Below, piece after piece: positions 41,476 through 43,276 of a stretch of 64,000 nucleotides of DNA (positions are counted from its first letter, which is position 1; each line of letters starts with the position of its first letter). Made by a program: the position numbers and the translations under genes. The DNA comes from Escherichia phage vB_EcoM-LTH01. The stretch lies in the sequence record PP430345; one strand, written 5' to 3'. The notes beneath the pieces were generated by a model, which was not told the DNA's origin, made no database searches, and was given only the letters and a program-made list of their open reading frames with translations.

Positions 41476-41479
41476 TATT

Positions 41480-41560
41480 TGGCGTGAAGGTGAAGAGTCG
41501 AACTCCTTACGACTGGTTTTGGAGGCCAGCTTGCCACCGTGACAATTATGTTACCCGCAC
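41480..41560 (-). tRNA. tRNA-Trp-like (anticodon CCA), atypical 5' half
   Basis: Anticodon loop CTCCAAA and T-arm GGAGTTCGA resemble tRNA-Trp, but acceptor pairing needs a mismatch and the D-arm region is ~5 nt too long. Confidence 0.4.
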
Positions 41561-41569
41561 ATTAATTTG

Positions 41570-41642
41570 GTTTCCGTACTGGATTCGAACCAGTATCACA
41601 ACGAGACGTTGCGGGAATCTTATCCTATAAGCCTAACGGAAA
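41570..41642 (-). tRNA. tRNA-like element, possibly non-functional
   Basis: Perfect acceptor (TTTCCGT/ACGGAAA), U8-A9 and T-arm ACTGG-TTCGAAT-CCAGT, but anticodon-position hairpin has a 3-nt TCT loop on a 7-bp stem. Confidence 0.3.
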
Positions 41643-41645
41643 ATT

Positions 41646-41732: not shown

Positions 41733-42040
41733 CTTATCCTACGGTCACACAAGTCTGACCATCTATCTCTGAGCAAGGGATTTCAAAATGTCTCCCGTCC
41801 CCAAATACATCTCGCCACATAGTCTATTCGGAAGCGGGAGTCTATGCACACCCCTTGCGGTAAGTGACCTCACTTTGAGATCAGCATCTTCCTTATTCGA
41901 CGAGTTAAATTCTCTTTAAGGTAGCCAGTGTTCGCAGCACTAACTATGAGGTATCCGTAAGATGATTTCAGTCATCTACCGAAAAATTACACCAAGCAAC
42001 TACCTTAAAGAGAACTTCTTAGTAAAGGCCCTTGCGAGCC

Positions 42041-42415
42041 TTAATCTTCACCTTCTGCCATTTTATACTCACGAATCTGAGTAGTTAATGGAATAGCATC
42101 TTTAAATGCATCAGAAGGGCCTTGATGAGTTTCTGAATTTGCAGAAGTAGTTCCTCCTGCCAGATCCTCTTCATTATCTTCCATTGTGTACAGATTGTTT
42201 GCCTTTTCAGCTTGCTCAAGAATATACTTCGCAGTAGTTTCTTTAACTTTCTCTGTACCGGAAGTCAGTAGACCTTCCAGAGTTTTAATTGCTTGAGGAG
42301 TAAGTCTTGCAAACTCGGAACGAGCATGAAGAATTGCTCTCTCAGTATTGATTGCAATGCTTTCCTCTGTAGTAGGCCGACCGCGTTTTCGAGTAACGAT
42401 TTCAGCTTTAGCCAT
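42041..42415 (-). CDS. hypothetical early protein (basic N-terminus RKRGRPTTEE, acidic C-terminus)
   Basis: ORF track 42041-42421; ATG 42415 preferred (GAGG + 5-nt spacer); promoter-like hexamers just upstream. Confidence 0.45.
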   Translation of the reverse strand: MAKAEIVTRKRGRPTTEESIAINTERAILHARSEFARLTPQAIKTLEGLLTSGTEKVKETTAKYILEQAEKANNLYTMEDNEEDLAGGTTSANSETHQGPSDAFKDAIPLTTQIREYKMAEGED

Positions 42416-42442
42416 AAACACCTCAATTCAGTCGATATAACT

Positions 42443-42471
42443 ATATTAGCAGTATAATAGGATTATGTCAA
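42443..42471 (-). promoter_or_regulatory. putative sigma70-like promoter (TTGACA-17-TAATAT)
   Basis: Consensus -35 and 4/6 -10 read on minus strand upstream of the 42415 start. Confidence 0.4.
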
Positions 42472-42607
42472 GAACTTATTGAAATGTATTAAGAAATGAA
42501 ATGGGGGTGCGCCGTTTCTGCTGTAATCTACGTCGTTATCGTTGAGGGAACTCGTAGTCAGGGAACATCAGTCCGACGACTTATCGGGAGCGACCCGACT
42601 TCTTATG

Positions 42608-42682
42608 TGGTGGCCCTGGGTGGAATCGAACCACCGTCTGGCGATTATGAGTCGCTTGCTTGAACCGTCCAGCTACAGGGCC
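42608..42682 (-). tRNA. tRNA-Met (anticodon CAT; initiator vs elongator vs tRNA-Ile2 not resolved)
   Basis: Perfect acceptor GGCCCTG/CAGGGCC, anticodon loop CTCATAA, T-arm GGTGG-TTCGATT-CCACC, discriminator A, CCA encoded. Confidence 0.75.
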
Positions 42683-42701
42683 TGTATTTAAAAGAACTTA
42701 G

Positions 42702-42780
42702 CGCGGGAGGAAGGACTCGAACCTTCATACTCCAATTACTCGATTAACGACGGTTTAGAAGACCGTTGAGATACACCCGC
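42702..42780 (-). tRNA. tRNA-Arg(TCT)-like element with non-canonical architecture
   Basis: T-arm GAAGG-TTCGAGT-CCTTC and perfect hairpin ACGGT-CTTCTAA-ACCGT, but the hairpin sits at the D-arm position; no canonical cloverleaf found. Confidence 0.3.
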
Positions 42781-43093
42781 GCTAAATTCTCTTGTGGGTG
42801 GTGACAGGTTTTGGATATTTAACGACAGGATAACCTTAAACCTCGTCATCATGACAAGGGGTACACCGTAAAAGATTGTCGTGGTATTAAAACTATAATG
42901 ATCCGTGGATCACTAATCAGACGATCTTCGACGGCTCCCCGATATACACAGGGATGGACTGGGCATCCCATTTAGTCGCAGTCAACCAAAAGCGTAAATC
43001 GCGGCGGTGGTATATTGGTTCCAACATATATTTATCCACCCAGCCTTCAAGATGACTAATCTCTCAGGCAACAAAATAATCTTACATATTTAA

Positions 43094-43276
43094 TCAGCTA
43101 TTGTCAACAGGTTTTTTACCATTAATGCAGAGATTACACATCACTGATCTCTTTGGTCCTAAAAACCTGTAACCGCAAACAAAACACTGACAAGTGTAGC
43201 CTTTTTGTTTTTCATGGTTGCGAGGATCATCGAAACTTAGAGATTCAAAGGTCTGGTCTTTCATCATACATCCCAA
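43094..43276 (-). CDS. small zinc-ribbon-like protein (CQCFVCG ... CNLC)
   Basis: ORF track; two Cys pairs. Confidence 0.4.
   Translation of the reverse strand: MGCMMKDQTFESLSFDDPRNHEKQKGYTCQCFVCGYRFLGPKRSVMCNLCINGKKPVDNS

Follow-up and report, generated by a model that had tools for sequence, protein, structure and literature searches.

The closest described counterparts of the RNA block analysed here are RNAs C and D of bacteriophage T4, which derive from the tRNA region of that phage, are late RNAs and have no known function (PMC3014915, PMC9697503, PMC12685909). T4 rnaD accumulates during infection as a discrete stable RNA of ~110-120 nt, as seen by Northern blot and RNA-seq (PMC9697503). 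In the literature on rnaC and rnaD, the rIII-30.9 spacer, small RNAs of T4, phage tRNAs without a D arm and tRNAs labelled "tRNA-Undet" we found only these statements that the function of rnaC and rnaD is unknown. The present block lies in a stretch of 64,000 nt from Escherichia phage vB_EcoM-LTH01 (PP430345), referred to as the window. Its source is a Vequintavirinae-like phage of Escherichia coli whose local genes are encoded on the minus strand. The block occupies positions 42443-43107 on the minus strand, and every conserved piece of it lies on this gene strand. It is probable that the block represents a protein-free string of structured-RNA modules moving between phage families. One segment is a member of the known rnaD family, and two further families, that of the hairpin B1 and that of a tRNA-Arg-like RNA, are defined here by covariation. 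The convincing structural evidence stems from the comparison across phages and not from the window sequence alone; the covariance models were applied to the window and to individually retrieved phage loci. The modules in question are:

42607 to ~42502, minus strand: rnaD-family small RNA, homologue of the T4 "species 2 RNA", also called band D RNA (BLAST, position, covariation)
42941-42855, minus strand: B1, an 87-nt rod-shaped hairpin with the helices P0, P1-P2 and P3 (covariation, folding)
42854-42794, minus strand: B2, a conserved 3' module with the core 42806-42852, AUGAUGACGAGGUUUAAGGUUAUCCUGUCGUUAAAUAUCCAAAACCU (sequence conservation)
42780-42702, minus strand: tRNA-Arg(UCU)-like RNA without the normal D arm (Rfam, 35.8 bits; covariation)

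By every criterion that could be applied to it, namely sequence, position 3' of a tRNA and covariation, the segment 42502-42607 is assigned to the rnaD family, of which it is accordingly a new member in a phage group without earlier rnaD annotation. BLAST against the annotated rnaD of phage RB7 showed 91% identity in a 5'-terminal stretch of 46 nt and 92% in a 3'-terminal stretch of 25 nt, the former located at the junction annotated there between rnaD and tRNA-Arg. The 5' part matches hundreds of T4-like phages, and 793 phage records match the segment. With T4 rnaD the window copy shares the conserved 5' block GUCGUCGGACUGAUGUUCCCUG and the 3' block CAGCAGAAACGGCGCACC as well as the location immediately behind a co-oriented tRNA, since it starts at 42607, one base past the CCA of tRNA-Met. 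The element is also found directly 3' of a tRNA of varying identity, within a tRNA cluster, in RB7, Karamvirus EnC15, Klebsiella phage M198 (KpM198) and Providencia phage PSTCR6. The record of Gaprivervirus SP18 carries a short annotated coding sequence between the rnaD element and tRNA-Arg.

The consensus structure calculated with RNAalifold from 14 versions of the element comprises a 5' hairpin, a CGUCG/CGGCG closing helix and inner helices, with compensatory changes in 11 of 20 pairs, and all of these helices are compatible with the window copy. It differs from T4 rnaD in following tRNA-Met instead of tRNA-Arg and in its central hairpin, which is of the short type known from Karamvirus and Klebsiella phages. 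Furthermore, its genome is Vequintavirinae-like and not one of the Straboviridae, and no homologue of rnaC was found in the window. The window copy is a mosaic: positions 42559-42607 and the 3' end are of the T4 type, and the centre (42525-42558) is nearly identical to the hairpin of EnC15 and M198. This build suggests recombination inside the RNA gene.

The hairpin B1 was aligned from 21 distinct sequences of T-even phages, kuraviruses and the clade of the window (UPEC06 group). In this alignment 98.6% of the pair cells are standard and 12 of the 26 pairs are compensatory, which was reached by none of 500 shuffles, and controls with slid partners showed 28-62% pairing and 0-2 compensatory pairs. 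RNAalifold independently gives the same fold. Where one strand of helix P2 has gained 2 nt, the opposite strand has an insertion of 2 nt as well. Since two G-U pairs are invariant (63 G-U vs 5 A-C cells) and the pairing reaches 98.6% for the sense (gene) strand vs 87.0% for the antisense strand, the data point to B1 acting as an RNA made in the direction of the genes. Whereas the stems vary, hardly any change is seen in the asymmetric internal loop UGAUUA / UAUAGUUUUAA..CC.C. In the window sequence itself the stretch 42855-42941 has a minimum free energy (MFE) of -30 kcal/mol (z = -3.6), and none of 200 shuffles was equally stable. The covariance model R1, to which the window copy contributed as one of the 21 sequences, recovers B1 at full length with 95.5 bits (E 2.6e-24) as its single match in the 64-kb window. 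No Rfam entry, annotation or paper was found for this element in the searches of the window, the T-even loci, the T4 reference record and the literature; T4 itself appears to harbour B1 as an RNA element that is under structural constraint but lacks annotation.

About 140 nt of the stretch 42794-42941 match ~800 records of T-even phages, in gene orientation and within the spacer that separates rIII from 30.9, which is left unannotated in the T4 reference record too. B1 (~80% identical) and B2 (95-98% identical, the value also obtained for its 47-nt core) occur there in the same order and orientation. In the T-even phages, however, the pair lies between two protein genes, whereas here it is part of an RNA-only unit beside tRNAs, and many T-even phages have 50 or 150 nt inserted between B1 and B2. 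Such inserts of ~50 or 150 nt sit exactly between the two modules (loci L039, 936-1225; L035, 5900-6182; L005, 601-889; L052, 6124-6313). The ~50-nt insert holds a partial duplicate of B2 (GGTTATCTGTC), the 150-nt insert is G+C-rich and looks structured, and neither of them matches an Rfam family. Some T-even records match B2 without B1.

B1 is present in one copy per genome and extends beyond the T-even phages. Kuravirus 172-1 carries B1 alone as a clean insertion of ~92 nt in comparison to phiEco32, placed between the stop codon of a gene and a terminator-like hairpin upstream of terL, and B1 was detected in ~28 of 72 kuravirus records. The Justusliebigvirus phages muut and PD06 have a B1-B2 copy, 98-100% identical to that of T-even phages, in their tRNA array between tRNA-Gly and tRNA-Gln. 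This copy belongs to a T-even-like fragment of ~340 nt with 97-100% identity (muut, L304, 2242-2673; PD06, L128, 1941-2371) which holds B1-B2 together with a 3'-terminal piece of rIII and a 5'-terminal piece of 30.9; the order is circularly permuted, the rIII end following the 30.9 start with an overlap of 7-16 nt. The permuted arrangement looks like a capture from a tandem or circular intermediate.

Searches of the IMG/VR and JGI metagenomes with longer and gapped patterns of B1 and B2 recovered T-even and kuravirus-type copies only and no further lineages. A loose scan for the loop motif that was filtered with model R1 returned no divergent copies of B1, and a 14-mer scan of IMG/VR returned almost entirely chance matches. 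A mimic of a host sequence was considered as well and discarded, as B1-B2 had no match in 5,426 E. coli genomes at the sensitivity of blastn.

The second family defined by covariation is that of the tRNA-Arg(UCU)-like RNA. It shares with a canonical tRNA-Arg(UCU) the acceptor stem of 7 bp, the anticodon stem of 5 bp, here with the loop CUUCUAA, and a normal T arm. Three of the four parts expected of a canonical tRNA, the acceptor, anticodon and T arms, are hence present, whereas the D stem-loop at positions 10-25 is missing. In the Rfam alignment the D arm (15 model positions) is replaced by 4 nt and the variable region is longer by 20 nt. A 3-bp CUC/GAG helix encloses the anticodon arm instead, and a D-loop-like segment of 23 nt lies 3' of the arm (D-loop-like sequence AGUAAUUGGAGUA). 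We infer from this arrangement that the D stem would still form, but around the anticodon arm, the D-loop sequence having moved to the position of the variable loop; the connectivity of the RNA may thus be rewired with the L shape retained. In contrast to mitochondrial tRNAs that lack the D arm, the RNA is longer than a normal tRNA. ARAGORN calls it at lowered thresholds only and not by default.

As 267-293 phage records match the family, the element of the window is, judged by this distribution, not a local pseudogene. The matching records include Felixounavirus, T5-like Klebsiella phages, jumbo coliphages, Justusliebigvirus and phages of Serratia, Streptomyces and Rhodococcus, and they are often labelled "tRNA-OTHER" or "Undet". 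Among 32 distinct sequences the pairing amounts to 99.2% of the cells, with compensatory changes in 15 of 20 pairs; the enclosing CUC/GAG helix is changed to CGC/GCG in five sequences with zero broken pairs. The 7-nt linker UAUCUCA is invariant across the family, and the anticodon loop is CUUCUAA throughout, with one member reading CCU, which is still an arginine anticodon. A scan for the exact pattern (one run) found 51 contigs in IMG/VR and a single one in 185,579 genomes of bacteria and archaea.

The genome of Felixounavirus REP10 holds 25 tRNAs, none of them a canonical tRNA-Arg, plus the Arg-like element. In Streptomyces phage Genie2 the Arg-like element occupies, with identical flanks, the orthologous locus of a canonical tRNA-Arg(tct) in the sister phage Birchlyn, and the extra 23-nt segment resembles the 5' strand of the D arm plus the D loop of the Birchlyn tRNA. 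A gene for a homing/HNH endonuclease adjoins the rearranged tRNA-Arg-like gene in Roth50 (L249, 689-1198) and the tRNA-Arg/rnaD unit in PSTCR6 (L177, 530-852). Endonuclease genes in such a neighbourhood could explain the movement of RNA modules between phages.

The remaining features of the block delimit a putative transcription unit around these modules:

43107-43079, minus strand: sigma70-like promoter TTGACA-17-TAAGAT (consensus scan, 10/12) with a predicted transcription start site at ~43072, likely the start of the RNA unit
42942-43078, minus strand: segment C, a clade-specific leader with several predicted hairpins (comparison, folding)
42608-42682, minus strand: canonical tRNA-Met (CAU) with encoded CCA (ARAGORN; Rfam, 60.3 bits)
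42471-42443, minus strand: sigma70-like promoter TTGACA-17-(TG)TAATAT with extended -10 (consensus scan, 10/12)

The closest relatives of the window phage are the Vequintavirinae UPEC06, A5-4 and A7_1 with 95-97% identity over the stretch, followed by A73 and W70 with slightly lower values. The upstream promoter motif is identical in all five of these relatives, while the neighbouring coding sequence varies. Segment C starts just downstream of it and is present in UPEC06, A5-4, A7_1, A73 and W70 only, no homologue outside these five having been found in the phage-genome searches; its fold (42942-43072) has a z of -2.0 vs shuffles. In A73 exactly the B2 module is missing, and the match to W70 falls into the same two pieces. 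The tRNA-Met is ~92% identical to T-even tRNA-Met genes. The second promoter-like site is located 3' of the rnaD-like RNA and ahead of the ORF 42421-42041, marks the downstream end of the block and differs among the relatives by a single substitution, which falls in the spacer. An RNA-only transcription unit would run from the promoter at 43107-43079.

The initial annotation, which had been derived from the window sequence alone, described this region as a non-coding block with GC-rich, self-complementary segments between two minus-strand genes. As a whole this observation was partly confirmed. The flanking ORFs 42041-42421 and 43094-43276 match PHROG families (E 3e-29 and 2e-22) and are on this ground real phage genes. 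By default ARAGORN finds the tRNA-Met alone within the block, and Rfam adds a weak tRNA match at 42702-42780. ORFs of 30-40 aa occur on both strands inside the block, but they are not conserved, as stops are found in all six frames of the homologous stretch of the phages T4T and RB51. With respect to base composition the description holds for 42500-42600 (54.5% G+C) and not for 42783-43090 (42.2% G+C), given a window mean of 42.5% and a 95th percentile of 52% for windows of 100 nt. Self-complementarity beyond chance was likewise seen for 42855-42941 and could not be recognised for 42495-42607 from the single sequence; the stretch 42796-42862 gave a z of -1.3.

The interpretation then offered fared unevenly. 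Candidate non-coding RNAs were borne out by the rnaD homologue at 42502-42607 and by the conserved, strongly covarying hairpin at 42855-42941, and the absence of conservation in related phages that had been named as the opposing outcome did not occur, since the pieces are conserved well beyond the relatives. An intron remnant, by contrast, found no support: when 42480-42607 and 42783-43090 were searched with the covariance models of Rfam 15, only tRNA models passed, and neither a group I intron nor any other credible family outside the tRNAs appeared even at E<=10 with lax filters. The homologous T-even regions yielded no Rfam match either. The weak matches obtained were considered spurious and lay far below the threshold, as for YrlA, which overlaps tRNA-Gly and tRNA-Pro, and for tmRNA_permuted with 12 bits; the matches to plastid untranslated regions (UTRs) lie on the antisense strand of tRNAs and that to Atu_C8 on a terminator.

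Apart from the block described here, the tRNA-free gaps of the first non-coding block of the window (41476-41645 and 41733-42040, minus strand) match stretches of other phages, namely Phapecoctavirus, Justusliebigvirus, T5-like phages and Salmonella and Klebsiella phages, some of which are annotated there as tRNA-Ser, tRNA-Arg, tRNA-Glu or tRNA-Ile. ARAGORN detects no tRNA in either gap, and the two may represent degenerate or non-canonical tRNAs.

The modules of the block might be expressed as follows. Host RNA polymerase would start at the promoter 43107-43079 and produce a single precursor with the order leader, B1, B2, tRNA-Arg-like RNA, tRNA-Met and rnaD-like RNA. RNase P would cut the 5' ends of the two tRNA-shaped units, cleavage of the RNase E type would take place in the A/U-rich spacers that immediately follow the CCA, and exonucleases would trim the ends; release of this kind by RNase P, RNase E and exonucleases is established for the tRNA precursors of E. 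coli and T4. The rnaD-like RNA would be set free as the 3' trailer of tRNA-Met, by analogy to the release of T4 rnaD from tRNA-Arg. The Arg-like unit most likely serves as the AGA/AGG-reading tRNA of the phage despite its rewired D arm. B1 would form a closed rod of sense-strand RNA with paired ends that resist exonucleases, and would most likely contact a host factor through its invariant internal loop as the working surface.

Considering its four unrelated genomic contexts and the lack of a downstream protein gene within the unit of the window, B1 is most likely an accessory host-directed RNA and not the regulator of a particular neighbouring gene. Such a role is favoured because B1 is patchy within families and has moved as a unit between four unrelated groups of coliphages, and because it lies among RNA genes without a protein gene to regulate, both here and in Justusliebigvirus. 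A more far-reaching version of this reading is considered less likely than not: B1 would be a new class of mobile host-directed RNA with a loop capturing a host factor, for instance an RNase, RNA polymerase or a defence protein, which is traded among unrelated coliphages including T4, and it would be accompanied by a functional tRNA-Arg with a rewired D arm, a tRNA architecture not recognised before and found here only in phages.

Several observations weigh against the preferred explanation of the block. Promoter-like matches are not above chance in the region (7 vs 5.4 expected), for which reason the transcription unit is put forward as a prediction. The fold of 42495-42607 is unremarkable by itself (z = -0.6), its structure being supported via the relatives instead, and B2 shows no covariation, as it varies too little for a test of structure, and could be a signal at the sequence level. 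The Arg-like copy of the window has either a U-U mismatch in its acceptor stem or a register slip of 2 nt, and it has no encoded CCA. The Justusliebigvirus copy of B1-B2 arrived together with dead fragments of rIII and 30.9, from which it follows that these segments can land in tRNA arrays as passive debris. Since B1 lies in T-even phages and kuraviruses between protein genes without a promoter or terminator of its own, a cis-acting signal fits there as well as a free RNA. Abundant small stable RNAs of T4 are not known to map outside its tRNA region; if there are none, B1-B2 probably does not occur as an abundant free RNA in that phage.

The main competing explanation, which has to be taken seriously even if we would not expect it to prevail, is that B1, with or without B2, is a cis-acting processing or stabilising hairpin of the RNase III or RNase E type in a polycistronic RNA and has no job of its own. 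The processing signals proposed in the initial annotation are in this form still a live alternative for B1 and B2. It would account for the position of B1 between co-oriented genes in T-even phages and kuraviruses, and it agrees with the mapping of the known abundant small T4 RNAs to the tRNA region. The long irregular helix of ~19-21 bp below the large internal loop is reminiscent of the intercistronic RNase III sites of the T7 type, which are also irregular hairpins with an internal loop located on the sense strand between co-transcribed units. The invariant loop moreover contains AG/UUUU, which reads as an A/U-rich single-stranded site similar to those of RNase E.

However, there is no sequence similarity between B1 and the T7 hairpins, its loop is much larger (5-6 against 18-21 nt) and invariant in sequence, and B1 is single-copy and horizontally mobile; the geometry of its duplex (P0 plus P1-P2, ~17-21 bp below the loop) appears unlike that of the T7 sites. 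RNase III has little sequence specificity, whereas the loop sequence of B1 is the same across families. B1 is moreover patchy and dispensable, being absent from most kuraviruses and from some T-even records that match B2, and its transfer in one piece among four unrelated groups of phages is a pattern commoner for accessory genes than for a processing site that evolved in place.

Alternatively, the segments might be passive remnants that recombination with co-infecting T-even phages has left in a recombination-prone tRNA region, retained but without a role in the window phage; this seems unlikely for the block as a whole. Such an origin is suggested by the 91-98% identity of the tRNA-Met, the 5' part of the rnaD-like RNA and B2 to their T-even counterparts, by the loss of B2 in A73 and the same gap in W70, and by the tRNA array of Justusliebigvirus, where a fragment 98-100% identical to T-even phages is embedded with dead pieces of rIII and 30.9. 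In the window, by contrast, no gene fragments accompany the modules, and the rnaD copy has kept the family structure though its central hairpin was swapped for the Karamvirus type. In particular, the B1 of the window clade differs from that of the T-even phages by compensatory changes which keep every helix, including the paired 2-nt insertions, and this requires selection on its structure. Passive debris is a realistic explanation of B2 and of the copy in Justusliebigvirus, but it leaves the compensatory evolution of B1 unexplained.

It is rather improbable that B1-B2 serves as an antitermination leader of an untranslated operon in the manner of the rrn boxB-boxA leader or the put RNA of HK022. 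The location ~130 nt downstream of the predicted promoter and ahead of untranslated RNA genes would suit such a leader, as would the B1 of kuravirus 172-1 directly upstream of the terminator-like hairpin that precedes terL. Yet a boxA is lacking, the best stretch of B2 agreeing with the rrn boxA consensus at 7 of 13 positions when read by sequence, no similarity to known antiterminator RNAs was found by Rfam or by sequence, and phage T4T has no terminator-like site after B1-B2 until past gene 30.9.

An even weaker case can be made for B1 acting at the level of DNA, with the loops representing a weak sigma70 promoter (CTGATT-17-TATAGT) or a protein-binding site and the hairpin being incidental. 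It is true that a constant distance of 17 bp separates the two invariant motifs and that TATAGT matches 5/6 of the -10 consensus, but the -35-like hexamer reaches 3/6 and the promoter scan makes no call there. The covariation of four helices, the invariant G-U pairs and the sense/antisense asymmetry could not be explained by a signal in duplex DNA, and in the kuraviruses a transcript starting there would meet the terminator ~40 nt later. Finally, we give hardly any credence to the remainder of the block coding for small proteins or being a degenerate group I intron, as the ORFs of 30-40 aa on both strands are the only point in favour of it, and as stops and frameshifts break every frame in the T-even homologues, the substitutions are paired stem changes instead of changes at third codon positions, and no intron model matches even at E<=10.

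Further candidates were examined for B1 and B2. No promoter of the sigma70, T4-early, T4-middle or T4-late type qualified within B2, either in the scan or by eye. A kink-turn or C/D-box composed of CUGA and AUGAUGA was rejected, the two motifs not lying opposite each other in the supported fold. The "promoter-early stem-loop" (PeSL) elements, which Arbiol and co-workers are said to have described in 2010 as mobile regulatory cassettes of T4-type phages, resemble B1-B2 in being short, mobile non-coding cassettes with a hairpin, exchanged among the variable regions of phage genomes. PeSLs, however, have an early promoter next to the stem-loop as their defining feature and are present in many copies within a genome, whereas B1-B2 is single-copy and without a promoter call both here and in T4T, and it was therefore not classified as a PeSL.

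Overall, the block appears to combine stable RNAs of phage tRNA regions with an RNA motif that is carried by T4 and has no Rfam match, and with a widespread family of non-canonical tRNA-like RNAs. The small RNAs C and D of T4 have been without a known function for about fifty years. The presence of an rnaD relative on a different tRNA in a phage that is not T4-like shows rnaD to be a portable unit and provides a second genetic system for a knockout. As B1 moves among unrelated coliphages, it probably confers an advantage in E. coli by itself. The rearranged tRNA-Arg-like family, if functional, would explain the "tRNA-OTHER" and "Undet" calls in many phage annotations and would widen the range of shapes that are possible for a working tRNA.

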